This document shows, piece by piece, positions 3,889 to 53,752 of a stretch of 61,422 nt of DNA. The stretch lies in the IMG/VR virus record IMGVR_UViG_3300033407_000369, positions 1 to 61,422 of that record; one strand, given 5' to 3'. Positions within the stretch are counted from its first letter, which is position 1; every line of letters starts with the position of its first letter. Below the pieces are notes generated by a model. That model had not been told where the DNA came from and did no database searches. It worked only from the letters and a program-made list of their open reading frames with translations. A program made the position numbers and the translations under genes. Source of the stretch: a virus. Taxonomy: Duplodnaviria; Caudoviricetes.

Positions 3889-3920
3889 GGCCAGGGCTGA
3901 GATAACCAGGAGGTTCAACG

Positions 3921-4448: not shown

Positions 4449-4450
4449 AA

Positions 4451-6081: not shown

Positions 6082-6085
6082 AAAA

Positions 6086-13380: not shown

Positions 13381-13392
13381 GGAGGAAACAAA

Positions 13393-13812: not shown

Positions 13813-13848
13813 TTTGCGCCATTAAACCAAAACCAGAAGGAGAACAAA

Positions 13849-14588: not shown

Positions 14589-16628
14589 ATGGCGGTGACG
14601 ATCGGTACATTGATGGCTTATATCGGGGCGGATACTTCCGATTTGAAGAAAGCAGAAGGGAGGGTCAAAGCATCTACCGATAAAATGTCGTCAAATTTTT
14701 CTTCCCTTGCAAGGGTTATTGGTGGCGTTTTTAGCGCAGTAGCCATCACCAATTTTGCGCGGGAGGTTGTGAAAACCGCTGATAACATGACCCTTTATTC
14801 GGCCCGGCTCCGCCTTGTTACAAATTCCCAGAAAGAGCAGATGTTTGTTCAGGACCAGCTCTTCAAACTGGCGCAAGAAACCAGACAAGCATACGGCGAT
14901 ACAGTAAACGTCTACGCCAGGCTTGGTCGGGCCGCCCGCGCAACTGGCAAATCGCACTTTGAATTGCTGGAGGTAATGGGCAATTTGAATAAAGCGATTA
15001 TCGTTTCTGGCGCGACGACCCAAGAAAGTGCAGCCGCTTTAATCCAGCTGTCACAGGGCTTGGCTTCAAATCGACTTTCTGGCGAAGAGTTGCGCTCGGT
15101 AATGGAGCAAATTCCCCGCGTCGCTCAGGCAATTGCGGATGGCCTTGGAGTTGACATTGGTAAATTTAGGGAAATGGCTTTCGCCGGGAAGCTGACTGCA
15201 AAGACAGTAATCGATTCTTTGCTGACCCAAACCGACGTTCTGAACCGAGAATTCGCCGGGATACCTGTCACTTTCGTGCAAGCTATGGTCAAAGTCCGCA
15301 ACGTCTTTGACAGATATGTTGACGACCTGAATAAATCAACAAACGCAACCGGAATTCTCGTTGATGCGGTTGAGGAATTTATTGCTTTTCTCGAAACACC
15401 AGAGACAAAACAGGTAATAGAGAATTTTGTTAAAGATTTGCCTAACCAAATCCTTTTGGTTAAAAATTCAGTCCAGGACTTGCTGACTATCTATAGTAAA
15501 TTACCAGAAGGAACAACTGCTGGGCTGATCGGGGCAATTCTGTTTGGGCCAAAGGCCGGATTGATTGCATTTTTAGTTGATGCGGTAGATTTGACTGAAG
15601 CGCTGGTAAATTCTATTGCTGGTTTCGAAGCCGTCAAAGAAGGGAAGTTGACTTGGTTCGAATATGCAACAGCCAACGCCGATGAACTGAAGTCGCTTCT
15701 TGCCGATATCGCGAATAAGAAGAAAGAAATAAATGCGGTGGTTTTTGAGCCGGGAGCCGCTACATTTGAAGAAGCGCTGGTAAACGAAGGAGTTTTCCCT
15801 TTATTGCCGTCTCAGAGAACTTCCCCATCATCTGCGCCACCGCGACTAGAAGGTTCAAAAGGTATTGCTTTTTCTACTTTCCAGTTTTCCGACGATACAT
15901 TGATAAAGATGCAAAAAGTCAGAAAAGAACTGGAAGATTTCAAAAAAGAACTGCAAACAGAAAAACTCCAGGGCCAACTATCTCAGGAACTCCCCGGAAT
16001 GCAAACCCCGGAAATGTTTGATGACTATCTATCAGAACACAAACAGGTATCCGAAGAGGTAGCAAAAACATGGATTGCCGCATTCCAGACCATCGAAGGC
16101 CAGTTTGCAAATACTTTCCAGATGGCCATGGAAGGCGACTTCGACGCGATCCTGGACAGCTGGGTTAACATGCTCCAGAGGATGGTCGCTGAATGGGCAG
16201 CATCTCAGGCCATGACGGCTCTTTTTGGGAAAGACTATGGGAAGGGTGGCCAGGGCGGATCGGGACTCCTGGGGGCTGTAGGGACGTTTATCGGGGGATT
16301 GTTCGGCGGCGGGGCAACCGGAAAAAAGACTGGCATGGCTTCCGGCGGCATGATCACCGAACCAATTGCTGGCATCGGTACTTCTACCGGCAGGCGCTAT
16401 ACATTCGGCGAATCCGGGGCAGAAAGGGTGACCCCGGTTAATCAAATGGGGGTGGAGAGCAACGGGGGCCAGGGCGGCAATATGACAACCAGCATTAATA
16501 TTATGGCTGCCGATGCTCAATCTTTTTCCGACCTCGCAAAAAGGAACCCACAGGCAATCATCGGCCCGATAACCGATGCTTTAAGACGAGGGAATAAAGG
16601 ATTGCGCTCTGCGATCCAGGGGGCTTAA
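14589..16628 (+). CDS. Tape measure protein
   Basis: 679 aa, helical; QLSQGLAS-x-x-LSGEELRSVMEQ tape-measure motif; MASGG C-terminal motif. Confidence 0.9.
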   Translation: MAVTIGTLMAYIGADTSDLKKAEGRVKASTDKMSSNFSSLARVIGGVFSAVAITNFAREVVKTADNMTLYSARLRLVTNSQKEQMFVQDQLFKLAQETRQAYGDTVNVYARLGRAARATGKSHFELLEVMGNLNKAIIVSGATTQESAAALIQLSQGLASNRLSGEELRSVMEQIPRVAQAIADGLGVDIGKFREMAFAGKLTAKTVIDSLLTQTDVLNREFAGIPVTFVQAMVKVRNVFDRYVDDLNKSTNATGILVDAVEEFIAFLETPETKQVIENFVKDLPNQILLVKNSVQDLLTIYSKLPEGTTAGLIGAILFGPKAGLIAFLVDAVDLTEALVNSIAGFEAVKEGKLTWFEYATANADELKSLLADIANKKKEINAVVFEPGAATFEEALVNEGVFPLLPSQRTSPSSAPPRLEGSKGIAFSTFQFSDDTLIKMQKVRKELEDFKKELQTEKLQGQLSQELPGMQTPEMFDDYLSEHKQVSEEVAKTWIAAFQTIEGQFANTFQMAMEGDFDAILDSWVNMLQRMVAEWAASQAMTALFGKDYGKGGQGGSGLLGAVGTFIGGLFGGGATGKKTGMASGGMITEPIAGIGTSTGRRYTFGESGAERVTPVNQMGVESNGGQGGNMTTSINIMAADAQSFSDLAKRNPQAIIGPITDALRRGNKGLRSAIQGA

Positions 16629-36044: not shown

Positions 36045-38750
36045 TTAAAAAGTGAAAATATTGTCGAACTTTCTTTGCTCAATTGGAGATGGATCTTGAT
36101 TGGTATTCCAGGCGCCGATTTTGTCCAGAATCGCAAGGGTTGTTTTGCCGATACCCTTGATTTCACGTTTGGTTGATGTTTTTGTGAAAAACCCCTTTCC
36201 TTTTATTGGTTTGTGTTCCGCGATCAATTTCGCAACATTGTCCCCGATGCCGTTGATAGACGTGAACGGGGCGAATAGTTGGCCGTCCTTGTCTACGATC
36301 CAGGAAGTGGCGTCCGAAATCCCAATTTTCGGCAATCGCAAAACGGCGCCAGCCCGCTTAGCTTCGGCGATGTAACCCCGGAAATGATCTTTGTTTCCGA
36401 AAGTCAAGCAACAAGCCAGAAATTCCCGTGGATAGTAGGTTTTCAGCCACATATCCCAATATGTAATTACTGAGTATTCGACAGAATGCGAGCGATTAAA
36501 TCCGTACTTGCCGAATGTTGAAATTGTCTTCCAGACCTCTTTTGCTTTCTTTTCGGTCAACGTTTCTTTTTCCGAGCATCCCTTGACAAATTCTGCCTGA
36601 TATTTGTTCAGCTCTTTTGCGCCCTTGCTTTTTGCCATCACCCCGCGAATTTTATTGCAAACGTTCATCGGGATTCCTGCCAGCCGATTGATGACCAGCA
36701 TCACCTGTTCCTGATAGACGATAATTCCCAGAGTATTCTTTGTAATTTCGTCATATATCGGATGGATTTTTTCAATCGCTTCCCGACCATGTTTCCGCTT
36801 GATGAACCTTTCGGCCATGCCGGAATGGAGCGGGCCGGGGCGGAACAGAGCCGTTGCAGCAGAGAGCAGCTCGAAGTTATCAATCCCGAGTTCCTGGCAG
36901 TATCCAGACAAACCTTTTGCGCTGATTTGGAAGGCACCGGCGACGTCGCCCTTGTTGATTTGAGAAAAGACTTTTTCGTCGTCTAGCCGGATGTCTTGGA
37001 AAACAATGTCGATGCCGTGGTTGATCTTAATCATCTTCCGGGATTCATTCAGGACGGACAGGGCAGACAGGCCAAGCACGTCCAGCTTCATCAACCCCAT
37101 ATATTCAGCGTTTTCCTTGTCCCAATTAGCGACAACAGTATTTGAGCGGATGGCCAAATTGCACTTGCGACCTTTTCGTAAATCCTGAGAAGAAATGCAG
37201 ACGGCGGCGGCATGCTGGCCGACTCCTCTTATCTGGCCCTCCAGGGCTTGCGCGACTTCAACCACTTTCGGGTATCTGGCTCGGAAACGGTTGCATTCTT
37301 CGTTGTCGCCGGAAAATGAGGTTTTGATTTGCTCTTTGTCGTCCAGGGCGTCATCCATCGCCTTTGCAGCTTTGTCTACCTCGGAAAGCGGAACGTCAAA
37401 AACCCTGGCCACATCCCGCAATGCGCCCTTACCCCGGATGGTCATAAACGTGGAGAGGCCGGCAACATTATGCTCGCCGTATTTGTCGGACAGATATTTT
37501 CTAACCAATGGGCGTTTGTGGTCTTCAAAATCAAGGTCGATATCTGGGAGGTCAGAGCGATCCGGGGAAATAAACCGGAAAAAGACGAGATCAAACTCTA
37601 TTGGGTCAACATCGGTTATTCCCAGCAGATAGGCGATCAAACTTCCGCCAACGCTGCCACGACCGGGGCCAACCATCACGTCATTCTTCCTGCACCACGT
37701 TATCAAATCCCAGACGATTAGGAAATATTTCTGGAATCCCATTTTTTTGATGAGTGTGAATTCTTCAACTATTCGTTCGTCGTAAATTGTCTTTTGTTCG
37801 GCGGTTTGATTTGGAAGGCGCAGTTGTTTTCCTTTACAAATCAAACTCCAGAGAAACAAATGCTCTTCTTCATCGACTAAATCTAGGCCGATTCCCGGCA
37901 AGGCAATCGGCTGTTGCTTTATCTCGAACCCCTCGCAAATCTTAGCGACCCTGACCGAATTCCGCATTGCTCGTTTGATCTGGCCTTCGTCAAAACAATC
38001 TTGATAGACAAATGCGTCAAACATCTCTTCATAATCTTTCAGGTGCAGGCCGGCAAACGAAAACTTCCAACGGGTTTTGTCCTCCCAGGTTTTCCGGGAT
38101 TGAATAGCCAGCAAAACCTCTTGGTGCATGGCTGATTCAGCGGTCGGATAGTGGCAATCGTTTGTGGCTACCAGCTCCAGGCCATACACTTCTGCCAACT
38201 TCTTGATCCGCTTGTTCAGTTTGATTTGCGGTTCAAAGTCGTGGGGCATAATCTCCAGGAACACCCGCTCTTTTCCGATCTTGTCAATTGCGCCTTGCAG
38301 AAATTCCCGGCCACCTGGCATACCCAGGAACGACATCGAGCAGCCCGACAACACAACCAAACCGTTCAGGTGGGCCAATAGGGTTTGTGGATCTATCCTT
38401 GGCCGGGAATAGAAGCCATCAAGATTAGCAATGGTCAGCATCTTTAAGAGATTGACCCAACCGATTTGATTTTCGACTAATACTGTTATGTGATAGCGCG
38501 TTTCGCCTTTGGGCTTGTCGGCCAGGTTTGGGACGATGTAGAGTTCGCAACCGATCAGCGGCTTGATCCCGACTTCCCGGCATGCTTTCTGGTGGGCCAG
38601 AGCGCCATCGATGTTACCATGATTGCTAATTGCGAGGTGGGTTTGGCCCTTGGCCTTGGCCAGCTCGGCAAATTGCTTGGAACTTCCGATGCCGTCTAGC
38701 ACGGAATATTCGTTGTGTAGGTGCAGGTGGCAGAAGCGCATTTTATTCAC
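36045..38750 (-). CDS. dnaE: DNA polymerase III alpha subunit (C-terminally short)
   Basis: HLHLHNEYSVLDG (PHP), GPGRGSVGGSL, PDIDLDF, KLDVLGL and YGFNRSHS motifs. Confidence 0.97.
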   Translation of the reverse strand: MNKMRFCHLHLHNEYSVLDGIGSSKQFAELAKAKGQTHLAISNHGNIDGALAHQKACREVGIKPLIGCELYIVPNLADKPKGETRYHITVLVENQIGWVNLLKMLTIANLDGFYSRPRIDPQTLLAHLNGLVVLSGCSMSFLGMPGGREFLQGAIDKIGKERVFLEIMPHDFEPQIKLNKRIKKLAEVYGLELVATNDCHYPTAESAMHQEVLLAIQSRKTWEDKTRWKFSFAGLHLKDYEEMFDAFVYQDCFDEGQIKRAMRNSVRVAKICEGFEIKQQPIALPGIGLDLVDEEEHLFLWSLICKGKQLRLPNQTAEQKTIYDERIVEEFTLIKKMGFQKYFLIVWDLITWCRKNDVMVGPGRGSVGGSLIAYLLGITDVDPIEFDLVFFRFISPDRSDLPDIDLDFEDHKRPLVRKYLSDKYGEHNVAGLSTFMTIRGKGALRDVARVFDVPLSEVDKAAKAMDDALDDKEQIKTSFSGDNEECNRFRARYPKVVEVAQALEGQIRGVGQHAAAVCISSQDLRKGRKCNLAIRSNTVVANWDKENAEYMGLMKLDVLGLSALSVLNESRKMIKINHGIDIVFQDIRLDDEKVFSQINKGDVAGAFQISAKGLSGYCQELGIDNFELLSAATALFRPGPLHSGMAERFIKRKHGREAIEKIHPIYDEITKNTLGIIVYQEQVMLVINRLAGIPMNVCNKIRGVMAKSKGAKELNKYQAEFVKGCSEKETLTEKKAKEVWKTISTFGKYGFNRSHSVEYSVITYWDMWLKTYYPREFLACCLTFGNKDHFRGYIAEAKRAGAVLRLPKIGISDATSWIVDKDGQLFAPFTSINGIGDNVAKLIAEHKPIKGKGFFTKTSTKREIKGIGKTTLAILDKIGAWNTNQDPSPIEQRKFDNIFTF

Positions 38751-44678: not shown

Positions 44679-45448
44679 TTCTTGATCTTCATGATTCCAT
44701 TTTTATCCTTCTCGACAACCGTTCCGGTGCGTTCGGCGGTTTCCTTAATCGCAAATCCTACCTGGCCTTTGAACTCTTTCACAAGATCGTCATGGCTCGC
44801 TTTCCCGGTTGCGATCTTGTCCATCACCTGTGATTTCTTACAGCCTGGACGGAATCCCCATTTGTCCTTTTCGTGGATGATGCCACCCTTCTTGGCCTTG
44901 GGAGTCCCACTTGCCTTGGTAGCAGCCTTGCCGGCCTTCTTGGCAACCGGCTTTGCAACGCCCAGCATCTTCAGGGTGGCCCAGGCGGCATCGGTCAGCT
45001 TTCCGGCATCGGAGGCGTCAAGGGTTCCTGCCGCTTCGGTGATGCTGTGGATGATTTCCAGGTCGGGAATGCCATCGACCTCGATCTCGACCATGCCTTC
45101 GATACCATTCAGTTCGCCGGCCAGGGCGGTCAGTTCTTCCAGGGTCGGCTCGGCGGCCTTAGCGGCAGGTTTCTTGGTGGTCTTAGCCGGGGCTTTCTTG
45201 GCGGCAGGCTTGGCCTTCTCCTTGGCCTTGGCAGCCGGCAGATCGGCGCCGATGGCTTCCAGGGTATCATGGGTTTCGGCGCCGATATCGTCCTCGACGT
45301 CCAGCAGCCCGGCGGCGGTAAGCAGCCCTTCCTTAAGCGCGTCCGGCTTGGCCTTGACGTCGATCTGCGGGTTCAGGTCCAGCAGAGTGTTGAGTTCCTT
45401 GGCCGCATTGACCAGTTCGCCACGCTTGACTTCTTTCTTGTCTGCCAT
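44675..45448 (-). CDS. Lys/Ala-rich histone-like DNA-binding protein (putative)
   Basis: Two related helical domains joined by KPAAKKAPAK linkers; RBS AAGGAG. Confidence 0.55.
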   Translation of the reverse strand: MADKKEVKRGELVNAAKELNTLLDLNPQIDVKAKPDALKEGLLTAAGLLDVEDDIGAETHDTLEAIGADLPAAKAKEKAKPAAKKAPAKTTKKPAAKAAEPTLEELTALAGELNGIEGMVEIEVDGIPDLEIIHSITEAAGTLDASDAGKLTDAAWATLKMLGVAKPVAKKAGKAATKASGTPKAKKGGIIHEKDKWGFRPGCKKSQVMDKIATGKASHDDLVKEFKGQVGFAIKETAERTGTVVEKDKNGIMKIKK

Positions 45449-45781
45449 TTTAATTCTCCTTCGTTCTGGTTTTGATTTTTGGCCATCCGGCCTGATTGAC
45501 AAATCCAGAATATTAGATTGCAAAACGAAAAGCTACAATTATTTTGCTGGATCCCAAATTTTTATTTGCTCTAGCTGGCTACCCCGGGATTTAACGGCCG
45601 GGACAGCCAAAACAACAAATAAATTAGTCCTGTTTTCTGTAGGGATTACTTTTTACAAACTCATAGTCGGCTTTAACAACCCCGGCGCATAATTTACCTC
45701 CTTTGGCCAAATGCCTATTTGGTTATATGATTTGCTATAACCTATTATACTCAGCCGCCCCGATTTTCAGAAAATTATTTT

Positions 45782-47320
45782 TTAAAAACTCCCTAAATGC
45801 GGCCGTCCAATCTCCAACCGCTGAAGAACAGTAGCAAATTTCTTCCCTCGCGCCCCTTCCCGGACCATCAATTGATTGATCCGAAATAACCCGATTTCCG
45901 CTTCCGAATCAGTTTGATTCAGCCCGAAAAACGCTGTAGCGTGGGCATATTGGCGCTTGTCTTCACTAAAATTGTCCAGTTCGAGCCATTCCTTTTTGTA
46001 CGCATCGGCGTCGGCTTGAGTTACAACCACGACTAGACAATGCCATTTATGGGCAATGGCCCGCAGCTTCTTCCAAATTGAATTCTTCCGGTGGCGTTGA
46101 TCCAGGCGCTTGTCTTCCTCGTTGACGTCCATAATATCCGGGTAATCCACCAGTACTACATCGGGCAAAAATCCCTGAGACTTCCAGATTTCAAGCTGCT
46201 GCTCTAGCATCCGGGGGGATAACGTATCGGCCGGATATTCAGCAAAGTTCCAACCCCCACCCCGAACCCTTTTGACAAATTGCCGTTCTGCCTCATACCC
46301 TTCTTTCCAGGTCAGAGGCTGGCATTTCTCCCGGATTTTGAGCCAAGCTGCTCCGATGAAATCGGCTTCGCCTTGACATTTACGGCAAGTTATATGGCCG
46401 GGGAACTCGTAGAAAATTGGCTTCAAAATTTCCGCAATCGGATTCTTTTTGTCCCAATGTTTCAGCCTGGTCTTCCCAGCCATCGGCGCCATACCTGGCC
46501 CATGCTGGCAGTCCCCATTCTGGTTTTTCCAACAATCAGCAACCGGGACGATTAAATCGCCACAATATTTGATCTTGTCGCTCCTTCTCGACAAATAGAT
46601 ATATTTCCGCAGTTCCATAGCCGATTTCGACATATCACCGGCAGCAAAAAACGCAACCTTTCGGCTGTTGCGCTGGGCCTGAAATGCAATATCCATCAAA
46701 ATCCAAGTCTTACCGATTTTTTCCTGACCGAGAAATGCAACAAAACCGCCCCGGACCATATGCTCGTTCAAGAGTTCACCCAGCTTGCCGGAATATTCAA
46801 CAATCGGCTCAGGGACATCTTCGAATATTTTTCTGGTTCGTTCAGGATCGTCCGCAAAAAAGTCGGGGTTAGCCTGAACCATCTTATCGGGAGCCAAGAA
46901 CCCGCCAATCTTAGCGCAGGCCGAACGGTAATCGCCCCGGAGGGCGTCCACCTTGATTTCATCCGCAAGCAGGATTACGGCTCGTTCTGCGAAGTATTTG
47001 ATTGCTTCGTCGGTCAGGACTCCGACGTTGATCTGATTTTCTGCGAAATCATCAGACAAATCTTGCAAAATATCTTCAATGTCTTCCTGCTGGTCGCTGT
47101 CCAGCAACCCACGCCGGGCATAAGCGGAATAGACCAATTGAATGTCCTGGTTCGGTGCGGCGTTGTGTTTTCTGAAATGCCTGATGCACCAACCGCAGAT
47201 CGTCTTTGCTGCCTGGGATTGCAGCAATTCGGGCCGGTAGATATGGTCGACTTCGCGTAAAAAATCGGCAGATGCAATCATGCCGATAGTGATATTCCGC
47301 TCTATATAATCATTTGGCAT
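45782..47320 (-). CDS. dnaB: DnaB-like replicative helicase
   Basis: GQEKIGKT, VDYPDIM and VTQA motifs. Confidence 0.8.
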   Translation of the reverse strand: MPNDYIERNITIGMIASADFLREVDHIYRPELLQSQAAKTICGWCIRHFRKHNAAPNQDIQLVYSAYARRGLLDSDQQEDIEDILQDLSDDFAENQINVGVLTDEAIKYFAERAVILLADEIKVDALRGDYRSACAKIGGFLAPDKMVQANPDFFADDPERTRKIFEDVPEPIVEYSGKLGELLNEHMVRGGFVAFLGQEKIGKTWILMDIAFQAQRNSRKVAFFAAGDMSKSAMELRKYIYLSRRSDKIKYCGDLIVPVADCWKNQNGDCQHGPGMAPMAGKTRLKHWDKKNPIAEILKPIFYEFPGHITCRKCQGEADFIGAAWLKIREKCQPLTWKEGYEAERQFVKRVRGGGWNFAEYPADTLSPRMLEQQLEIWKSQGFLPDVVLVDYPDIMDVNEEDKRLDQRHRKNSIWKKLRAIAHKWHCLVVVVTQADADAYKKEWLELDNFSEDKRQYAHATAFFGLNQTDSEAEIGLFRINQLMVREGARGKKFATVLQRLEIGRPHLGSF

Positions 47321-47328
47321 TTGCGACC

Positions 47329-47482
47329 TTATAACAACTCTTTGCAGTTCGTTCGAGCGCGTCGGTAAATCCGCAAGGTGCGCCAAGGTTTTCCGTTGAC
47401 CGTTATTCGGTAATTATTGCTCCGGGTTCCAGGGTAGAATACCAGAGTATTGGGTTTCCCGCGTCTCAGCTTAGCGTTATGC
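47329..47482 (+). repeat. attC-like site 0
   Basis: TTATAAC...GTTATGC; arms homologous to site 4 (GGTAAAYCCGC; TTGGGTTTCC(C)GCGTCTCA). Confidence 0.65.
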
Positions 47483-47656
47483 TGAACAATAGCATCCCGG
47501 TTTTCCGTCATGGAACGGGCAGCCACATTCATCGCAGAAAGCAGCAAAAGACGGATACTTGTCGATATTCGCAGGAATGATCTTCCAGTTTGGCTTACTG
47601 CCAAGCTTGCTCTGGTTTTCAAAAATTCCCCCTTTTTTTAGCTTTGTCTGCATCAT
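47477..47656 (-). CDS. Cassette ORF, small Cys-rich hypothetical
   Basis: FCDECGC...CYC; stop lies in the GTTA of site 0. Confidence 0.45.
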   Translation of the reverse strand: MMQTKLKKGGIFENQSKLGSKPNWKIIPANIDKYPSFAAFCDECGCPFHDGKPGCYCSA

Positions 47657-47660
47657 TTCT

Positions 47661-47852
47661 TTACTCGTCATCACTGTACCTCAATAGTTTGTGTTCCCAG
47701 AGGATTGCCAAAATATCATCCATAAATTCAAGATCCCTGGCAACCTCGTTTCCGTTTCTCTTCTCATATTCGTCGCGGATCGCCAGGACATCATCCGGTT
47801 CAAAACACCACCCGCACATCATGTCTTTTTCTTTTGATAGCCTTAATTTCAT
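47661..47852 (-). CDS. Cassette ORF, hypothetical
   Basis: RBS GAGGAG. Confidence 0.5.
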   Translation of the reverse strand: MKLRLSKEKDMMCGWCFEPDDVLAIRDEYEKRNGNEVARDLEFMDDILAILWEHKLLRYSDDE

Positions 47853-48019
47853 TTTCTCTCCTCTTCCCCAAATGGCCTACTCACACATGGCCCCGGTCCA
47901 CGGCGGATGTGCTCTCATATGCTTTCGGCCATAATGTAAAAAGGCGGGGTGGCCTGCGTCTTTTCGCAGTAATCAAGAGCAACCAAGATTAGGTACCGCC
48001 ACCCCATAAATTTAAAATC

Positions 48020-48085
48020 GCATAACCAGCGCATTAAGTCGGATTGCCGAAACTGCCCGGCAACCGCTTATGCTGGTCGTTAGAG
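48020..48085 (+). repeat. attC-like site 1
   Basis: GCATAAC...GCAT-T-AAG / CTTATGC...GTTAGAG. Confidence 0.85.
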
Positions 48086-48313
48086 CGCATGCTCACGTTC
48101 CAGCATTTCAGGCTTCTCGCCATCGTCCAGCGGCATCAGCCAGTTGGCTTGCGCAAACCAACTCACACCGGGCGGCACCGGGCACGGGTGTCGCGGGAAA
48201 AGCACTTCGTAGTCGCCTTCATCGTCCAGCGGCCCGACGATCTCGCCTACAGCGCCCAGGGGTGGCATGCACCCGTCAGCGCCAATCAGCATCACAAGCT
48301 GTCCAACCTTCAT
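48080..48313 (-). CDS. Cassette ORF, hypothetical (SH3/KOW-like start MKVGQLV)
   Basis: RBS GGAG; stop lies in the GTTA of site 1. Confidence 0.55.
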   Translation of the reverse strand: MKVGQLVMLIGADGCMPPLGAVGEIVGPLDDEGDYEVLFPRHPCPVPPGVSWFAQANWLMPLDDGEKPEMLEREHAL

Positions 48314-48333
48314 AGCGTTTCTCCAAAAATGCG

Positions 48334-48395
48334 CTCTAACCCCGCCAATCGAGCGGACGCCATAAAGCGGGCGCCGCTCATCGGCAACGTTATAA
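48334..48395 (+). repeat. attC-like site 2
   Basis: CTCTAAC...AAT-C-GAGCGG / CCGCTCAT...GTTATAA. Confidence 0.85.
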
Positions 48396-48602
48396 TTCGG
48401 TAGCAACCAACCTATATTTTGGTTTGCCATTTTCGGTAATCACAACAGGTTCACCAGCTGTCAGGCAGTGTTTGGCTACAGCGGCGCAAGCCTCTCCTGT
48501 CACATCTGTTTTGTTTGACAACCATGTTCTGCCGTCCTTGGCCACATGCCCGCAGAATATCCTATTTGTCAATGGTGATGGTGCTACGTGTAGTTGTTTC
48601 AT
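48390..48602 (-). CDS. Cassette ORF, phage-type hypothetical (SPLTNRIF-x-G...K-x-DVT)
   Basis: RBS GGTGGAG; stop lies in the GTTA of site 2. Confidence 0.6.
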   Translation of the reverse strand: MKQLHVAPSPLTNRIFCGHVAKDGRTWLSNKTDVTGEACAAVAKHCLTAGEPVVITENGKPKYRLVATEL

Positions 48603-48620
48603 GTCTCCACCTTTTTAAAA

Positions 48621-48673
48621 TTATAACAATCGCATTAACGCAGACGGCGGCTCCGCTGAACTTATCGTTAAAC
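48621..48673 (+). repeat. attC-like site 3 (short, degenerate)
   Basis: TTATAAC...GTTAAAC. Confidence 0.65.
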
Positions 48674-48934
48674 TGCCCGAGCATTCCACCGTTGGGCAAC
48701 AAACAACCTTACAAACTCAAGCGTTTCGTCATCCATGCACCCGGTGGAAAAATCAAACTCGCCGCATACCCCGCATTGTATGCGGTGGCACCCTGGCCCT
48801 TTTGGATCACCGCAGTCACACCATTCCACTCCACCACCACAAAAAGGGCAGTTTAACAAAACGTTAGAGTTCGACGGTAAACCCGCCGCGTTTGTTGGCT
48901 CCTGGCCAGTATGTTCTTTCGCTAAATTCGTCAT
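48668..48934 (-). CDS. Cassette ORF, Lar-like restriction alleviation Zn-finger
   Basis: L-x-x-CPFCGG...I-x-C-x-x-CG...WN-x-R; stop lies in site 3. Confidence 0.7.
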   Translation of the reverse strand: MTNLAKEHTGQEPTNAAGLPSNSNVLLNCPFCGGGVEWCDCGDPKGPGCHRIQCGVCGEFDFSTGCMDDETLEFVRLFVAQRWNARAV

Positions 48935-48983
48935 TCCATCCGTCTCCGTGTTGGGTTTCCGCGTCTCAACTCAATCGTTAGCG
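48851..48983 (+). repeat. attC-like site 4
   Basis: GTTTAAC...GAGTTCGACGGTAAACCC / GGGTTTCCGCGTCTCAACTC...GTTAGCG. Confidence 0.8.
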
Positions 48984-49196
48984 AGATGCTCTTTCGTACG
49001 CCCTTAACGGCCGGGTCACAAGCAAGTCAAGGCGCAGGTTTTGAATTAAATTGGCCACATCTCCAGCCACTTCTGCGGCATACGTCAGGTCGCCGGTCTC
49101 TTCCATGCGCTTCGCCACGCGGTCAAACTTGGTGGCATAACCGTTAAGCGTTTTTGACATTGTCTTTATCAGGGTAACGGTTTCTTGCGTTTCCAT
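48978..49196 (-). CDS. Cassette ORF, helical hypothetical
   Basis: RBS AAGGAG; stop lies in site 4. Confidence 0.6.
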   Translation of the reverse strand: METQETVTLIKTMSKTLNGYATKFDRVAKRMEETGDLTYAAEVAGDVANLIQNLRLDLLVTRPLRAYERASR

Positions 49197-49211
49197 ATCA
49201 CTCCTTTAAAT

Positions 49212-49299
49212 CGCTAACAATAAAATTAAGCAGACGCCGAGAACGTCCGCGCTACTGCTGCACCATCAAGGGCGGCGCAGCTTATTTAAGCCGTTACCC
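49212..49299 (+). repeat. attC-like site 5
   Basis: CGCTAAC...AAAT-T-AAGCAGACGCC / GGCGCAGCTTATTT...GTTACCC. Confidence 0.85.
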
Positions 49300-49485
49300 T
49301 GCCAGGGGAGGCCGGAGTTTATGCACTTTAATCAGTGCCTCTTCTAGCATCGTCCCTCGGGGGTCGTCTTGTGCGTCCAGCCAATCCCAAACCCATTCGG
49401 TCAGCCGCACACCCTTGGTCAATTTTTTAAAGCCTGGGGGGCGGGTTGGTCGCCCGCTCCCCGGCTGAACTCCGCCTCGGCTCAT
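49294..49485 (-). CDS. Cassette ORF, small DNA-binding protein (GG-x-x-x-GSGR + RHH-like)
   Basis: SRGGVQPGSGRP...VRL-x-x-W-x-x-DWL; stop lies in site 5. Confidence 0.6.
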   Translation of the reverse strand: MSRGGVQPGSGRPTRPPGFKKLTKGVRLTEWVWDWLDAQDDPRGTMLEEALIKVHKLRPPLAG

Positions 49486-49682
49486 TTCGCGACCAGGTAC
49501 TTGCGGAGTGCGGCGGCTTTCATTTCTTCAAGGCTCCCGACATAAAAACCGTCAACGATAACTTCGGCGACACAAGTTCCAAACTCGGTGGCGTCAGCGA
49601 GTGTCTCGTGGATGTCGCCATCGTTGTCGATGTAGTAGCTGGTGGTGTTATTCTGGTCGGTTGCGGCGTTGATGGTCTTCAT
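49482..49682 (-). CDS. Cassette ORF, acidic hypothetical
   Basis: RBS GAGGAG; ATGA-coupled to the next gene. Confidence 0.55.
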   Translation of the reverse strand: MKTINAATDQNNTTSYYIDNDGDIHETLADATEFGTCVAEVIVDGFYVGSLEEMKAAALRKYLVAK

Positions 49683-49734
49683 GGCTTTCTCCTCGGTTTT
49701 GGTTTCGGGCTGTATTGCCCCTCTCTTGATTATA

Positions 49735-49764
49735 GTTATACCAAAACCTTTTCCGGGCTGTAAA
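49735..49764 (-). promoter_or_regulatory. Sigma70-like promoter inside a cassette
   Basis: TTTACA-18 nt-TATAAC with TG extension; a TATAAT follows immediately. Confidence 0.5.
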
Positions 49765-49806
49765 GAAAAAAGTTTAACCTAAATCATTTTATTTTGTACC
49801 CGGCCA

Positions 49807-49893
49807 GGGTAACAAAATTATCAAGCAGACCAGAAGAAAGGCTGTCCAAGGTCTGCACGCTCAGGGGCTGGCAGCTTATAAAAGCCGTTGGGC
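49807..49893 (+). repeat. attC-like site 6
   Basis: GGGTAAC...TTAT-C-AAGC / GCTTATAA...GTTGGGC. Confidence 0.8.
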
Positions 49894-49901
49894 TGCAAAA
49901 A

Positions 49902-50081
49902 CTATTTCAAATACTCGGGCTTTACCTGTTGGTGAATTGTCTTAATCACCATGTCTCCGTAGAAAAAAGCGTAGCTGGTAGTCTTCGCCAGCCAGTAACA
50001 GCCGTAAATAACGCCACCGGCCAGCGTCAAGCCACCGACAAATACAGCAATTATCCCAACACTTTTAAATAAATTCTTCAT
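49902..50081 (-). CDS. Cassette ORF, small membrane protein
   Basis: Single hydrophobic helix; RBS GGAGG. Confidence 0.55.
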   Translation of the reverse strand: MKNLFKSVGIIAVFVGGLTLAGGVIYGCYWLAKTTSYAFFYGDMVIKTIHQQVKPEYLK

Positions 50082-50109
50082 CAAATTCCCTCCAAGTATA
50101 GTTTTTACA

Positions 50110-50203
50110 CTCCAACAAAACATTGTACGCGGACGGGCAACAAGCCCGGTTGCGCTATTCGCGGCAGGTTCTTAGGCCCGCCGGTAAATTGTGGTCGTTA
50201 TGC
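50110..50203 (+). repeat. attC-like site 7
   Basis: CTCCAAC...GGACGGGC / GCCCGCC...GTTATGC. Confidence 0.75.
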
Positions 50204-50416
50204 AATAAAAAGATCATCGTGCAAATCTTTCCAGCATAATATCCAAAATGGCACGTATTCGCTTTTTATGTTTGGGCATTTATTGGCACTTTTCAGTTGG
50301 TTGTCCGTGAGTTCGTGGCTTTCCCCGGTGTAAACTCCGCCCGAGGTAGTCAAAATCCTGGTCCCCTTGGGCAACGGTTTATTGTCTGCGAGTAGGTTGT
50401 ATATCTCAAGCTTCAT
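50198..50416 (-). CDS. Cassette ORF, hypothetical
   Basis: RBS GGAG; stop lies in the GTTA of site 7. Confidence 0.55.
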   Translation of the reverse strand: MKLEIYNLLADNKPLPKGTRILTTSGGVYTGESHELTDNQLKSANKCPNIKSEYVPFWILCWKDLHDDLFIA

Positions 50417-50439
50417 GGGCCTTCTCCGTAATATTAACA

Positions 50440-50527
50440 GCATAACAATAAAATTCATCGGATGCCGAGAATGTCTGTGGCCCTACCGGGAACAACTCCC
50501 AGGCGGCACCGCTGATTATCGGCGCCG
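50440..50527 (+). repeat. attC-like site 8 (right core site lost)
   Basis: GCATAAC...AATTCATCGGATGCCG / CGGCACCGCTGATT; no terminal GTT; overlaps the DnaC-like stop. Confidence 0.6.
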
Positions 50528-51250
50528 ATCCTTCCCGGTCATCTCAACCAGGCGGCACCAACCAAATATCCGACTAGTCAATCTATTGTCCCCAAGCCTA
50601 TTCGTCAAATCCAGCAAATTCAAATTTGACGTGATTATTGTCGTTTTATTGTACTCAAAACGATGAGATAAAATTAAATAAAGCGTGGATGCCACCCAAT
50701 CAGTGATCTTTTCAACCCCGATGTCGTCTAACACCAACAGGTCGATCCGTTGATAATATTCGACCAAATCTGTTGAGGTGGATTTCGTTGGCCCGGAGTA
50801 GGTTTTGCGGATGTCGTGCAAAAGTTGGGGGCAGGAGATAAACCGGCAATCTTTTGCTAAGCCAGGGCACTGAGATATTGCAGAGAGCAAAATTTCTGCG
50901 GCCTTGAAGGTTTTCCCACATCCAACAGGACCGAAGATAAAAAGCGATTCCGATGCGAATTCTTCAACCTTTCCCGATTCCTCAACGGCATTTGCTGTCC
51001 GGGGTGGAACCCCGCAACCCTCAAGATGAGCGGATGACGGAATGGCGTCGAAAGAAAGTTTATCCGCACATGGCTGACAAAATTTCATGTCTGACGCAAC
51101 CTGCCGGCCGCAAGATCCGCAGCCTTTTGTCTTCGGGGCGGCTTCTTCTTCCTGGCATCGTTGGCAAAGTTCAACGACCGATCCGGGAGGGCATGTTGCG
51201 CCACATTCCAGGCAGGTCAAGCGGCCGCTGAACTTAATATTTGTAGCCAT
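50516..51250 (-). CDS. DnaC/IstB-like helicase loader ATPase
   Basis: GPVGCGKT, LLVLDDIG, TIITSN and R-x-x-SRI...G-x-D-x-R motifs; N-terminal Zn ribbons. Confidence 0.9.
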   Translation of the reverse strand: MATNIKFSGRLTCLECGATCPPGSVVELCQRCQEEEAAPKTKGCGSCGRQVASDMKFCQPCADKLSFDAIPSSAHLEGCGVPPRTANAVEESGKVEEFASESLFIFGPVGCGKTFKAAEILLSAISQCPGLAKDCRFISCPQLLHDIRKTYSGPTKSTSTDLVEYYQRIDLLVLDDIGVEKITDWVASTLYLILSHRFEYNKTTIITSNLNLLDLTNRLGDNRLTSRIFGWCRLVEMTGKDRRR

Positions 51251-52157
51251 CGTAGTTTTCCCTCAAGAAATCTTTGATCTCGTCTGGAATATTGGGGTCA
51301 TTAGCATTATACTCTTTGCCGTCCATATTCCAGGTAAATATTTTCGGACAGGGTTGCTTTTTGAGCAAAGGGGAGGGGTTTTGTTTTTCTTGTTTGATTT
51401 TTTGGACAGCGGCCCAACCAGCGTCGATATCGGCGGCCGAGTTCAGCCAACGAAGTTTATTTAGCCACGTAGCCGGGAGGGGGATATTAGATTGATCAGA
51501 TTGCCATTGCTTGGTTTTGGATTGTTCATAAATTGCCCGGCGGATAGTTTTCCATTCCGGGCGGTTTGGATTTTTGGAATTGCATAATTTATTCCATGCC
51601 CGGAGGGCGTCCCCTTTTGAATTCTTCCGGGGGTAGATTTTCCAGAAGTTTTCAAAAAGTTTCCCGGTAACAAACAAAGATTTATTTATTTCTTTTTTTT
51701 GTTTAATATTTAATTGATTACTCCCCATCTCTTGGGGAACCCCTCCCCCATCTCTTGGGGAACCCTCCCCCATCTCTTGGGGTACCCCATCTCTTGGGGG
51801 AGGGGGGTCATTTAATGCTGGGTGACCAGTTTTTATCGCTTCCACTTCTGGCACTGTTGCAAAATATTTATTTGATGTATAGCTCCCGGAATCGTTCAGG
51901 CGCCGTTTTGCAACAATCCACCCTGACTGTTTGAGATTATCCATGTGGTTCGAAACAGAATTGACTGAACAACCCATCATTTTAGCCAGGGTGCTGGTTG
52001 AGGGCGTCGCCCAGTCTTTTCCATCCCACATGAATTCAGCGAGGCAAACAACTAATAGTTTTGATAATGGGGACAAATCTGAATGAAGCGCGGCCCGCCT
52101 CCAATTGAAGGCCGGGTAAATCTTTCCTGACACATCAACATCATCTTGTTCTGACAT
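51234..52157 (-). CDS. Replication initiator (winged HTH, lambda O-like)
   Basis: PS-x-x-TLAKMMGCS-x-x-SV HTH; FENFWKIYPRK and PATWLN-x-x-RW motifs; internal iterons. Confidence 0.85.
   Translation of the reverse strand: MSEQDDVDVSGKIYPAFNWRRAALHSDLSPLSKLLVVCLAEFMWDGKDWATPSTSTLAKMMGCSVNSVSNHMDNLKQSGWIVAKRRLNDSGSYTSNKYFATVPEVEAIKTGHPALNDPPPPRDGVPQEMGEGSPRDGGGVPQEMGSNQLNIKQKKEINKSLFVTGKLFENFWKIYPRKNSKGDALRAWNKLCNSKNPNRPEWKTIRRAIYEQSKTKQWQSDQSNIPLPATWLNKLRWLNSAADIDAGWAAVQKIKQEKQNPSPLLKKQPCPKIFTWNMDGKEYNANDPNIPDEIKDFLRENYDGYKY
51723..51799. repeat. Replication origin iterons: 4 x CCCCATCTCTTGGGG
   Basis: Copies at 51723, 51746, 51768 and 51785; adjacent AT-rich tract about 51670-51720. Confidence 0.85.
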
Positions 52158-52323
52158 TTTCAGAACCTCCATAGTTGTCAGGGCTATTATCCCCTGAAGG
52201 TTATTTGATGGAAGTCGGGTTGGCAACTATTCCAACCCTCCCCGGCGCCAACCGCTCTTGATGATCAGTCAAGAGTCCAATAAGCAATATAATTTACCGG
52301 GTCAGAAATTAAAAGAAAAATTT

Positions 52324-52542
52324 TTAATCAGCTTCCCGATGCCGATAATGTGTCAGGTCAGGGTCAATTTCCCGGCTTGCAACTTCCCGGTCAACCCGCT
52401 GCGAAACAGCAACCCAATCGTCAATTGGCGGGAACTGATGAACGACAACGATGTTTGAATCAGATGATTTGATTGCGAGGAATAGTAATGTCAGCAACAC
52501 TGCGGAAACCAACCTATGCAAAAAATAGAATAATTTGGTCAT
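52324..52542 (-). CDS. Hypothetical membrane-anchored protein
   Basis: N-terminal hydrophobic helix; RBS GGAGG. Confidence 0.45.
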   Translation of the reverse strand: MTKLFYFLHRLVSAVLLTLLFLAIKSSDSNIVVVHQFPPIDDWVAVSQRVDREVASREIDPDLTHYRHREAD

Positions 52543-52556
52543 CTCGGCCCCTCCAG

Positions 52557-53495
52557 TTATCTTTTAAACCCCAAATCCCGCATTAATGAATCGGCATCTG
52601 CCTGTTTCATATCTCCAGGGTCAACTTCCGTCCCCGGCAGGACTATAACTTCAATCCCCCTGAATCCCAACTCTGCCCGGATCTTGCCGGCCGCATCTTG
52701 TCCGGCTTGGTCAGGGTCGAACAAGACAAATATCCGCTTCCGCCACTTCGCCATCACCCGAATCTGAGGCAATTTGAATTTAACCCCAAAGCAGCAAATT
52801 GCCCCCTCGCCCAGCTTCCAAACATCTGTTACGCCTTCAACCAGCACGGCCATATCTCCAGGCGCCCGGCCATACAGAATCCGCTTATGCTCAATCAGCT
52901 CCCGCTCTTTCGGGCAGGCCATATATTTGAGTTTGTGTCTCCCGGTCACGTCCCGGCCCTGGAATGATACCGTTTTGCCCTCCCACTCAATCGGGATCAT
53001 TACCCGGTGCTTGTAGTCGATGATCTTGCCGCCTGTTTCCAGTGGTGCAAGTGGGCCAGTCGAAAATATTCCCCATTCGGCCACCAGCTTTTCCGGGTCA
53101 AATCCCCGGCGCTCCAAATAAGCGGCATGATGGCGAAGCAGTGGGGATATTCCGCCTGGATATTTAAAAGCCTTCTTGCGGACGTTCGTCTTGCTCTCTA
53201 CGGGTAGATAAGAGGCCGAGCTACCCTTCCCCCCATATTCCCGGAAAATCTCGCTTAGATCGTGTTCTGGGACGTTCAGGAGTTTAGAAAGCGTTTCCTT
53301 GACCGGATGGGCACCACAACGCCAGCAGACGAACCGTCCGGCGAACTGGCCGGAGATAGAATATCCAAGGTGAAAACCCGGATTGCCTTGACAGTAGCAG
53401 CAGGGCACCCCGACCCACCCGGCCCGGACGTGCTTGTGACCTTCCAGCTTGTATGGGATGTGGCGATCTTGGTATAGACGGATGATGTCAATCAT
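52557..53495 (-). CDS. dnaG: DNA primase (Zn finger + TOPRIM)
   Basis: CCYC...CWRC, YLERRG, FQGR, VEGVTD and FDPDQAG motifs. Confidence 0.88.
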   Translation of the reverse strand: MIDIIRLYQDRHIPYKLEGHKHVRAGWVGVPCCYCQGNPGFHLGYSISGQFAGRFVCWRCGAHPVKETLSKLLNVPEHDLSEIFREYGGKGSSASYLPVESKTNVRKKAFKYPGGISPLLRHHAAYLERRGFDPEKLVAEWGIFSTGPLAPLETGGKIIDYKHRVMIPIEWEGKTVSFQGRDVTGRHKLKYMACPKERELIEHKRILYGRAPGDMAVLVEGVTDVWKLGEGAICCFGVKFKLPQIRVMAKWRKRIFVLFDPDQAGQDAAGKIRAELGFRGIEVIVLPGTEVDPGDMKQADADSLMRDLGFKR

Positions 53496-53752
53496 TTTAT
53501 CGACACATTGCATGGGTACGACTTGACCCATACAGCATCCATCGCAGCCAGAATTTTTTCAAGTGCTGCTGTCTGGCCAATTGATTTTCTGGCCGTGACT
53601 CCATCGGGATAATGTCCCGGCGGGAAAATTACGGTGAAATAATATTTGCACTCTCGAAAATCAGCGCACATGCAGTGGTTTTTTACTTTTTCTTTTGAAT
53701 TCTTAAGATCACCGATATTATCTCGGATGGTTTTCATTTTGTCAATCATCAT
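53492..53752 (-). CDS. Hypothetical protein
   Basis: Overlaps neighbours; RBS AAGGAGG. Confidence 0.4.
   Translation of the reverse strand: MMIDKMKTIRDNIGDLKNSKEKVKNHCMCADFRECKYYFTVIFPPGHYPDGVTARKSIGQTAALEKILAAMDAVWVKSYPCNVSIK

Follow-up and report, generated by a model that had tools for sequence, protein, structure and literature searches.

Which way do the genes of a cassette array run relative to their attC sites when the array sits in a phage genome? The question is raised by the IMG/VR soil-phage contig analyzed here (the whole stretch of 61,422 bases is called the window below), in which nine attC-type sites (s1 to s9) are clustered at 47.33-50.52 kb and form, with ten small ORFs, an array of eight cassettes. 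Phage clusters of attC sites lacking an integron integrase (CALINs) have already been published: Qi et al. (2023) described them in phage genomes, and five of the six phage attCs tested were recombined by IntI1 (PMC9892861). An earlier sequence-only reading of the window proposed that all its cassette genes are inverted relative to attC. The evidence assembled below makes it very likely that these sites and ORFs make up a true integron-type cassette array that lacks an integrase (CALIN), located in a phage replication module, and that its genes are inverted.

Setting and sites of the array

The array is placed between the genes for a DnaB-like replicative helicase on the left (45782..47323, - strand; phrog_19, 6.3e-29) and a DnaC-like helicase loader on the right (50516..51250, -; phrog_50, 2.6e-35), the TAA of the latter (50516-50518) overlapping L' of s9. 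Farther right, an O-like replication initiator gene (51234..52226, -; phrog_270, 7.7e-30) contains iterons at 51723-51788 (tandem repeat with a period of 22, 2.9 copies, 93% matches), which suggest the position of the origin. The array is embedded in a 35-kb block of - strand genes, and the cassette genes are co-oriented with this leftward block. Searching the contig with TIGR02249 and PF00589 did not yield an integrase, and the array in the window has no intI, attI or Pc.

Five sites are canonical attCs on the + strand, with scores on an architecture scale (maximum 13) and matches to a covariance model as follows: s2 (48020..48085; 13/13; 22.0 bits, E 0.008), in which three positions of the AAC arm (16, 20 and 24) hold extrahelical bases; s3 (48334..48395; 12/13; 31.9 bits, E 3.6e-5), with an extra C, 6 bp and an extra A; s6 (49212..49299; 12/13; 28.4 bits, E 2.4e-4), which closely parallels the top strand of the aadA1 attC of plasmid R100; s7 (49807..49893; R' GTTGGGC; 12/13; 22.0 bits, E 0.008); and s8 (50110..50203; 13/13; 18.6 bits, E 0.05), where the extrahelical bases again number three. 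The right end is formed by s9 (50440..50517, +), a truncated attC in which the arms pair and the right spacer and R' are missing; with R' left free, it scores 12/13 on + vs 9 on -. The remaining three sites fall outside the canonical architecture. The long attC-like s1 at the left end (47331..47482, +; R'' TTATAAC, R' GTTATGC) scores 9.5/13 on either strand and gave no significant match in the covariance model search; other runs break at this site's R' core (47476) in three of three cases. In the alignment it is homologous in both arms to s5 (48851..48983, +; 11/13; 20.0 bits, E 0.024), likewise long, and a third copy of the right arm of s5 is present in X1 record 4, followed by a different cassette. 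The degenerate s4 (48621..48673, +) has an s2-like left arm and almost no right spacer; scoring 7.5 on + vs 8.0 on -, it is not callable by itself, and it was matched by the model on the - strand only (12.3 bits, E 1.5), the sole such match in the array. The cores of s4 are complementary to those of its neighbours at 9/9 positions.

Strand of the sites and limits of the cassettes

According to the published rule, the top strand of attC carries extrahelical bases on the AAC arm, near positions 16 and 23/24, with 6 bp between them (PMC5027507). The architecture score was calibrated on attCs anchored by intI: in eight of eight class-1 attCs (anchored by intI1 and annotated genes) the top strand scored 11-13/13 and the bottom strand at most 10.5, and in five IntI-bearing viral loci nine of nine sites found by the scanner point away from intI, a sixth such locus, L014, having no scanner site. 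Scanning of the 61,422 bases on both strands gave five + hits of at least 12/13, all within the array, and one - hit, outside it (3855-3919); five shuffled-sequence controls gave 1, 0, 0, 0 and 0 hits. On the - strand, no array site scores 11 or more. The covariance model (R1) was built from 14 attC top strands oriented by intI, annotated cassette genes or publication, and the best six of the 14 matches listed for the window are + strand array sites (s3, s6, s2, s7, s5 and s8). The extra unpaired bases noted previously in the left arms on + are real and lie in the AAC arm, and the cmsearch alignments agree: s3, s6 and s7 have unpaired bases at model positions 16 and 23, and s2 has a third unpaired base. 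Fold energies fail to separate the strands, - being more stable in five of the nine sites.

Natural variants provide another test. They come from Logan contigs of other metagenomes, which can be chimeric, and are documented by their coordinates and by 30-nt loose ends; X1 is possibly the sample from which the window itself came. The leftmost cassette gene, o47477, has a different left flank in X2, X3 and X6, the break falling at 47474/47475. Record 28 of X6 matches 47801-48083 with two differences and one gap, through the whole of s2, and then diverges; s2 thus accompanies the genes at its low-coordinate flank. The entire cassette (47477-48079) turns up in different surroundings in X3 and X6, and X2 has a diverged form of it, with breaks at G|TT cores. 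X2 also contains an exact copy of s2, and both X3 and X6 have related copies, again in different surroundings. What moves as a unit is the gene or genes plus the attC lying 5' of the gene, as expected if + is the top strand, and, judging from the natural variants, the cassettes appear to be mobile in nature. The cores point the same way: the R' that opens a cassette and the R'' of the next site are complementary at 9/9 positions in four pairs, at 8/9 in one and at 7/9 in two, and R'' and R' within one site at just 3-5 of 7 positions. This complementarity across genes, absent within sites, indicates that G|TT exchange occurred when the genes were already present.

Three independent tests (architecture score, covariance model and natural variants) therefore identify + as the attC top strand, as the sequence-only reading had it; an attC model favouring -, named there as the refuting outcome, was not what the search returned. 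It is scarcely credible that the orientation is conventional, with - as the true top strand, an attC after each gene and an asymmetry that is near-palindrome noise: viewed from -, a gene does resemble a normal cassette (GTTRRRY, RBS leader, ORF, TAAC stop, hairpin), s4 is marginally better on that strand and the fold energies are mixed, but all three tests contradict this arrangement, the variants breaking at + strand R' cores (47474/47475, 48083) and keeping s2 with the low-coordinate genes while dropping s1, the opposite of the prediction for a - top strand.

Only slightly less improbable is the possibility that the hairpins represent an intergenic element of phages, regulatory or serving another recombinase, that is merely attC-like. 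The Rfam search left the sites unmatched, IntI is absent, and s1 and s5 are long and atypical, all of which would fit such an element. However, a model of integron attCs only reaches E 3.6e-5 in the array with nothing comparable elsewhere in the 61 kb, the extrahelical positions and the 6-bp spacing fit the published rule (PMC5027507), and the arms parallel those of the aadA1 and aac(6')-Ib attCs from plasmids. Moreover, related arrays adjoin a true intI (locus L082 on contig G001, see below), and scans of the array for terminators and promoters showed no enrichment.

Genes of the cassettes

As had been claimed, the ten small ORFs are all encoded by the - strand, and for seven of them a GTTA core supplies the TAA stop, at exactly the seven coordinates proposed (47477, 48080, 48390, 48668, 48978, 49294 and 50198). 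The other three are o47661 and o49482, the upstream genes of two-gene cassettes, and o49902, which ends in TAG 15 nt from the core. Purine-rich Shine-Dalgarno-like stretches are found upstream of nine of the ten starts.

Seven of the ten ORFs have neither a family match nor a homologue. These are o47477 (65 aa; 47477..47674, -; stop in the s1 core, GAGG upstream of the start) and o48080 (77 aa; 48080..48313, -; stop in the s2 core, GGAGAAA before ATG), both searched in Pfam and PHROG; o47661, the second gene of the o47477 cassette (63 aa; 47661..47852, -; GGAGAG before ATG); o48978 (72 aa; 48978..49196, -; stop in the s5 core, AAGGAG before ATG), of which X2 contains an exact 151-nt copy; o49482, the upstream gene of the o49294 cassette (66 aa; 49482..49682, -; GAGGAG before ATG); the hydrophobic o49902 (59 aa; 49902..50081, -; GGAGGG before the start); and o50198 (72 aa; 50198..50416, -; stop in the s8 core, GGAGAAGG before ATG). 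Family matches were obtained for o48390 (70 aa; 48390..48602, -), a DUF7446 protein (PF24233, 2.3e-16; phrog_1578, 1.3e-12), and for o48668 (88 aa; 48668..48934, -; GGAG before ATG), a Lar-like restriction-alleviation protein (phrog_599, 6.7e-6, residues 16-87). The start of the Lar-like ORF is indeed encoded by an attC-like site, the ORF overlapping s5 by 84 nt so that its first ~28 codons lie inside the site; yet s5 is long and weaker (20 bits). The basic protein o49294 (63 aa; 49294..49485, -), with the N-terminus GG...GSGR, has tblastn homologues (44-47% identity, E 1e-11) in L043 and L082, the one in L082 lying immediately upstream of an intI; each is encoded on the strand opposite to the attC top strand. 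The description of the cargo as phage-type therefore holds for two of the ten ORFs, the Lar-like and DUF7446 proteins, to which the o49294 homologues in two arrays may be added.

Pfam or PHROG matches were found for two of the ten - strand ORFs vs none of nine + strand ORFs, and 19 of the 27 X2 differences listed fall at third codon positions of - strand ORFs (14/20 in o47477 and 5/7 in o47661; p 9e-5). When the window itself was put through an automatic ORF-coverage rule, two cassettes were called bottom, one top and three ambiguous; the cassette called top has two genes on -, each of them shorter than a 105-aa + strand ORF.

Polarity of phage cassettes and its possible basis

Viral and bacterial contigs were surveyed alike, with one attC pattern (characteristic of some attCs only) and one pipeline. 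Among the matches listed, cassette ORFs were assigned to the top strand in 41 and to the bottom strand in 6 bacterial cases, and to the top in 3 and the bottom in 12 viral cases (Fisher p 2.7e-6), cassettes within one array being non-independent; by locus majority, the top:bottom ratio was 11:1 in bacteria and 1:8 in viral contigs (p 3.7e-4), where IMG/VR contigs can include bacterial DNA. Ambiguous cassettes accounted for 19/34 viral and 34/81 bacterial ones among the matches listed. Family matches were obtained on bottom-strand ORFs in L010 (RNA ligase, 1e-14; C5 methylase, 6e-25), L031 (2e-9) and L051 (4/6), and none on the 20 top-strand ORFs scanned. Hence, among the matches listed in this survey, mirror polarity is common in attC arrays of viral contigs and rare in bacterial ones, and this like-for-like comparison lends support to the proposed phage-adapted cassette pool. 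A literature search found no paper describing inverted cassette polarity.

Two contigs assessed by CheckV as 100% complete illustrate this polarity. In G004 (38 kb, 11 attC hits), the integrase, primase and tape measure genes are all opposite to the attC top strands. The contig behind L082, G001 (43 kb), is a temperate phage with portal, tape measure and phage integrase genes and a complete integron, the IntI of which scores 461.7 bits vs a cut-off of 265 and is 54% identical to IntI1 over 323 aa. It has the attC type of the window and a homologue of o49294, and here too the genes run against the attC top strand; an excisionase-like ORF (phrog_1300, 4e-6) and the o49294 homologue end in core TAA or TGA. 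Its intI is directly downstream of the cassette genes and co-directional with them, whereas the window is integrase-free. One complete phage with inverted cassettes therefore also encodes an integron integrase.

Like the array in the window, the phage CALINs of Qi et al. are attC clusters without an integron integrase, and their cargo includes orphan methyltransferases and other counter-defence genes (PMC9892861). The arrays are presented there as bacterial-like, whereas the cassette genes of the window are all inverted; in the portion of that text available, the words "opposite" and "antisense" occur 0 times and genes antisense to attC are not mentioned (PMC9892861). TJE1, the best of their examples, proved conventional in our scan, which placed attCs at 1016-1075 and 1462-1519 on the strand of the genes. 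Bacterial arrays, both mobile class 1 and chromosomal, share with the window the attC architecture, G|TT exchange, hybrid R boxes, short ORFs tightly packed between sites and stops inside the core. Their genes, however, lie on the attC top strand upstream of their own attC in 41/47 callable cassettes among the matches listed, as in all annotated class-1 cassettes, whereas the cassette genes of the window lie on the bottom strand, downstream of attC. Some promoter-bearing cassettes, such as toxin-antitoxin ones, sit in reverse orientation. Bottom-strand cassettes make up 6/47 callable bacterial ones among the matches listed, and promoter-bearing toxin-antitoxin cassettes are scattered exceptions in conventional arrays; the window array is inverted throughout and its cargo does not consist of toxin-antitoxin pairs. 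Bacterial cassettes are expressed from Pc beside attI, elements that the window lacks, and promoter-bearing cassettes (e.g., toxin-antitoxin cassettes of chromosomal integrons) are independent of Pc (PMC13108822).

It is unlikely that the attCs, although real, are a dead relic, a piece of a bacterial array captured once and inverted, the gaps of which were filled by phage genes. The contig without an integrase, the degenerate or truncated s4 and s9, and a flanking-gene search that found no closely related phage contig with a different array agree with such a relic. Against it stand the 7-9/9 complementarity of the cores flanking each gene and not of those within a site, and the occurrence of cassette 47477-48079 elsewhere (X3, X6; diverged in X2); in addition, a wrong-way capture leaves ORFs ending exactly in the core TAA unexplained, and the same polarity recurs in 8/9 callable viral loci among the matches listed.

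In the inverted array, each cassette comprises TTRRRY, one or two small - strand genes, their own attC and then G, an order that places the gene antisense to attC and downstream of it in the sense of transcription. Movement would proceed by ordinary integron chemistry, in which the bottom strand (here -) folds and is cleaved in the AAC of R', with an integron integrase probably supplied in trans by the host or a co-resident phage. As a conjecture, the inversion would place the recombinogenic bottom strand on the coding strand, which transcription does not use as its template and which serves as lagging-strand template when a fork moves with transcription. The geometry of the replication argument made earlier stands (a leftward fork, with - as its lagging-strand template), and published experiments back an effect of replication on attC folding (PMC5371416, PMC13108822); the origin in that argument is the putative one at the iterons, and the reason offered for the inversion is accordingly conjectural.

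It is possible, if the less favoured reading, that the polarity is real and general and has a cause other than replication: reading may need to run from a phage promoter upstream of the array into an intI beyond it, as in G001; transcription may expose the non-template strand; or opposite polarity may silence phage cassettes in bacterial integrons and bacterial cassettes in phages. The shared direction of early genes, cassette genes and intI in G001 and the position of the window array inside its - strand block speak for such causes, but all three share one geometry with the lagging-strand idea and are not separated from it by the present data, and the published replication effect (PMC5371416, PMC13108822) favours the latter. 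Should the conjecture on the coding strand be true, phage cassettes would stay recombination-prone while being read from upstream phage promoters.

Structure and top strand of the attC-like sites

The phage contig is linear (61,422 bp, CheckV completeness 89%), and its genes from ~22 to 57.7 kb are encoded on the - strand. This region holds a replication module comprising a PolA-type polymerase (36045-38750), a DnaB-like helicase (45782-47323), a DnaC-like loader (50516-51250), an O-like initiator (51234-52226) with iterons inside its gene (51723-51788), and a primase (52557-53531). The loader is CxxC-rich in its N-terminal 100 residues, outside its PHROG match (residues 100-244). Between the loader on the right and the helicase on the left lie nine attC-like hairpin sites, s1 to s9 (47331-47482, 48020-48085, 48334-48395, 48621-48673, 48851-48983, 49212-49299, 49807-49893, 50110-50203 and 50440-50517), all of which open with xxxxAAC and all but the last of which close with GTTxxxx. 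On the top strand, the AAC of a 5' inverse core RYYYAAC (R'') and the GTT of a 3' core GTTRRRY (R') could both be placed in eight of the nine sites, s9 having no R'. The core that opens an interval is complementary to the inverse core of the next site at 9/9 positions in four pairs, 8/9 in one and 7/9 in two, whereas R'' and R' of a single site are complementary at just 3-5 of 7 positions. Complementarity between rather than within sites is, judged from these cores, the classical trace of G|TT exchange among different attC sites. For the R'' of s1, no partner GTTATAAG was found left of the helicase.

Searches with generic instruments did not single out the sites: Rfam (gathering thresholds, and E up to 10) gave chance matches only and no attC family, generic repeat finding did not pick them out, and a 22-base pattern common to s6 and s9 had no match in genome contigs or in viral contigs. 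Scans of the array for promoters (7 vs 6.2 in shuffles) and terminators (9 vs 7.1) revealed no enrichment. The two longest sites, s1 (152 nt) and s5 (133 nt), are homologous along both arms, and record 4 of metagenome run X1, possibly the source sample, has a third copy of their right arm with another cassette behind it; s1 and s5 might represent a favored point of entry or a duplicated boundary dividing the array in two.

In attC sites, the extrahelical bases of the top strand share an arm with AAC, close to positions 16 and 23/24 with 6 bp between them (PMC5027507, in excerpt). This rule was expressed as an architecture score of 13 pairs and calibrated on attCs of independently fixed orientation, taken from plasmid R100 and from another four class-1 arrays in which intI1 and the cassette genes are annotated; for all eight calibration attCs the top strand gave 11-13 and the bottom strand no more than 10.5. 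At six plasmid loci the scanner placed sites solely on the strand opposite intI1 (6/6), and at the five IntI-encoding viral loci with scanner sites all nine sites read away from intI; a sixth IntI-bearing viral locus, L014, had no scanner site. In the window, an imperfect hairpin with extrahelical bases on the R''-L'' arm and a central spacer left unpaired gives s2, s3, s6, s7, s8 and s9 12-13 of 13 on the + strand, and s1, s4 and s5 fall short. When both strands were scanned at a score of at least 12, five matches were found on +, all in the array, and one on -, at 3855-3919, vs 1, 0, 0, 0 and 0 matches in five shuffles of the window. With the missing R' left free, s9 scores 12 on + vs 9 on -; for s4 (7.5 on + vs 8 on -) the score gives no strand. 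The strands could not be told apart by fold energy.

The same strand is favored by R1, our own covariance model (not that of IntegronFinder), which was built from 14 bona fide attC top strands and run on both strands with filters off. Its best matches in the window, in the order s3, s6, s2, s7, s5 and s8, are all on +, with scores from 31.9 down to 18.6 bits; these six of the nine sites reach E <=0.05, and the sole - strand match within the array is s4 (12.3 bits, E 1.5). The sequence-only reading, which took + to be the conventional top strand, is thus upheld: better scores on -, set beforehand as the outcome speaking against it, were not what R1 returned.

Profile searches with TIGR02249 and PF00589 had zero matches anywhere in the contig (89% complete), so the array, with six significant co-oriented sites inside 2.2 kb and no integrase, is a CALIN (an attC cluster lacking integrase), whose recombinase, if there is one, has to be supplied in trans; the intI, attI and Pc that make up a complete integron were not found together beside it. 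The search for relatives through the flanking helicase gene found none, and that through the DnaC-like gene found two loci (L002 and L003) with an attC match in neither. Comparison of the array with plasmids and with phages by blastn gave chance matches only, or none.

Coding strand and the cassette unit

The intervals between the sites are filled by ten - strand ORFs of 59-88 aa. As the initial inspection of the sequence had it, seven of these take their TAA stop from the GTTA core (at 47477, 48080, 48390, 48668, 48978, 49294 and 50198), and its further claim that the cassette genes lie on the - strand holds for all supported ORFs, which are bottom-strand, that is, inverted relative to the attC top strand. 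Two - strand ORFs match known families (DUF7446/phrog_1578, and phrog_599 for a Lar-like protein), vs none of nine + strand ORFs; o49294, which encodes a basic GG...GSGR protein, has homologues in two other arrays; and in a variant from metagenome run X2, 19 of the 27 listed differences fall at third codon positions of two - strand ORFs (p 9e-5). Seven of the ten ORFs had no homology support in the family and homologue searches. A crude ORF-coverage rule called two of six window cassettes bottom and one top, leaving three ambiguous, and an all-vs-all blastp of cassette ORFs returned few cross-array pairs, three bottom-bottom and two top-top, the latter being shorter antisense echoes.

The boundaries of one cassette are fixed by natural variants. 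Contigs from three other metagenomes of different studies (X2, X3 and X6) were compared with the window over 45000-52500, as coordinates plus 30-nt loose ends. The segment with o47477 matches a 1661-nt X3 contig over 47474-47690 with two differences, the contig being unlike the window below 47474; it matches X6 over the same 47474-47690 and X2 over 47475-47810 (~84% identity), in both cases with a left flank unlike the window. Record 28 of X6 (1110 nt) matches 47801-48083 with two differences and one gap; the match begins at the start of o47661, takes in the spacer and the entire s2, and gives way to divergence past the GTTAG of s2. An X3 loose end shows the same alternative continuation beyond s2. 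Together, the left-flank breaks and the linkage through s2 delimit, as far as contig comparison goes, a cassette unit of 47477-48079, consisting of two - strand genes with an attC on their 5' side and reaching from the G|TT of s1 to that of s2. This is the unit predicted with + as the top strand; with - as the top strand, the genes should instead stay linked to s1 and break off at the inverse core of s2, and neither was seen. In a conventional cassette the ORF shares the attC top strand and precedes its own attC, an arrangement not found here.

Variation is also present inside this cassette. Contigs of X1 and X2 match rightwards from 47640 and differ leftwards, within o47477, and a 48-nt piece (47643-47690) over the o47661/o47477 overlap occurs alone at higher depth; the differences at 47640-47690 suggest allelic or modular variation within the cassette, away from attC. 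In the diverged X2 copy 203 nt are missing (47811-48013): o47661 loses its initial 14 codons, and most of the 167-nt spacer that precedes s2, the longest non-coding stretch of the array, is gone as well.

Cassette polarity in viral and bacterial arrays

The top-strand left arm was used as a pattern to survey IMG/VR and one-genome-per-species bacterial contigs, with one scanner and one ORF rule for both sets and with the duplicate viral locus L085 dropped. Among the matches listed, the bacterial set comprised 120 loci, 109 sites, 15 arrays and 81 cassettes (41 top, 6 bottom and 34 ambiguous), and the viral set 118 loci, 67 sites, 19 arrays and 34 cassettes (3 top, 12 bottom and 19 ambiguous). 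The orientation check on phage vs bacterial arrays thereby came out as expected from the window, with callable cassettes among the matches listed mostly bottom in viruses and mostly top in bacteria (Fisher p 2.7e-6 by cassette); by locus majority, top:bottom was 11:1 in bacteria vs 1:8 in viruses, again among the matches listed (p 3.7e-4). Two of the three viral top calls among these matches are in L024, which has intI, and the third is from L010, in which two genuine + strand ORFs had been split. R1 and the scanner were concordant on arrays. Family matches of bottom-strand ORFs at L010 (RNA ligase and C5 methylase), L031 (RNA ligase) and L051 (four of six ORFs) confirm the coding strand there, and 20 top-strand ORFs scanned for families had no match. 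For the methylase cassette common to L010 and L051, attC identity hardly differs between its own site (0.71) and the neighboring one (0.68), and for the o49294 cassette, compared between the window and L043, identity is ~0.5 for every pair of sites, own or neighboring.

Several loci have peculiarities of their own. A beta-proteobacterial MAG (L146, 46-1945) has attC matches each 296 nt (46, 342, 638 and 934), with very short, near-identical cassettes, possibly a tandemly amplified cassette. A Flavobacteriales MAG (L185) carries two convergent, opposite attC arrays on an 8-kb stretch, with + sites at 1105-2652 and - sites at 4200-7373. On a Vibrio cholerae plasmid (L128, 3353-4702), a group II intron reverse transcriptase adjoins the aadA16 attC and is encoded opposite to the cassettes, a placement that is a known habit of group II introns targeting attC.

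Two whole phage contigs, both with CheckV completeness of 100%, carry inverted arrays. In G004 (38 kb), genes for a serine integrase, primase and tape measure all lie opposite the tops of its 11 attC matches. The temperate phage G001 (43 kb) has ParB, Rha, portal, tape measure and phage integrase. Its additional integron integrase (461.7 bits, cut-off 265; 54% identity to IntI1) follows immediately downstream of cassette genes that are antisense to their attCs, and is read in the direction of those genes. One of these cassette genes upstream of the integron integrase is an o49294 homologue (~13243-13521 in G001; 3299-3577 in the surveyed locus L082), which ends in TATAAC, 78 nt ahead of the intI start codon, so that only this interval could hold the attI of the phage-borne integron. 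Its cassette has an AT-rich leader of 110 nt. The integron integrase gene of G001 faces a second integrase gene of ordinary phage type (phrog_1, 9e-49) at 13522-15603 (L131), the two converging with ~10 bp between them. The published CALIN of phage TJE1 has the conventional orientation, in contrast to the inverted genes of the window array.

Possible reasons for the inversion and its meaning

From the hybrid cores and the core breakpoints in other metagenomes, we infer that an integron integrase would act on the folded - strand of these attCs, exchanging cassettes. Placement of the attC bottom strand on the lagging-strand template increases folding and excision, and inversion of a Vibrio cholerae array raised excision from <7e-5 to 3e-2 (PMC5371416 and PMC13108822, both in excerpt). 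Where the genes of a phage run with the fork, the attC bottom strand would reach the lagging-strand template in inverted cassettes only, and we conjecture that the inversion serves this placement, favoring folding and excision. Three further conjectures stand level with this one: the inversion may let transcription of the cassettes run on into an intI behind them, the layout seen in G001; it may expose the bottom strand as the non-template strand in transcription; or it may isolate phage cassettes from bacterial integrons. We consider it possible, at somewhat below an even chance, that phages keep their own cassette pool of mirror polarity, in which the bottom strand is both coding strand and lagging-strand template, host or phage-borne (G001-type) integrases service the pool, and the opposite polarity silences phage cassettes in bacterial integrons and bacterial ones in phages.

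Phage CALINs have already been published (PMC9892861); in the text consulted, that paper does not mention genes antisense to attC, and its tables of all 17 phage CALINs may bear on inverted examples. A full-text literature search found no paper describing inverted cassette polarity. Cargo of phage arrays, here including anti-restriction (Lar-like) and DNA-modification genes, would be wrongly annotated by tools that expect cassette genes on the attC top strand.

In integron theory, strand selectivity exists for the right-sense placement of promoterless genes behind Pc. Inverted, apparently still mobile phage arrays imply either another use of this selectivity in phages, for which single-strand availability and read-through from phage promoters are candidates, or separate phage and bacterial cassette pools. 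If phages do keep a pool of mirror polarity, a cassette array would serve them to store early and counter-defence genes and to reshuffle these quickly.
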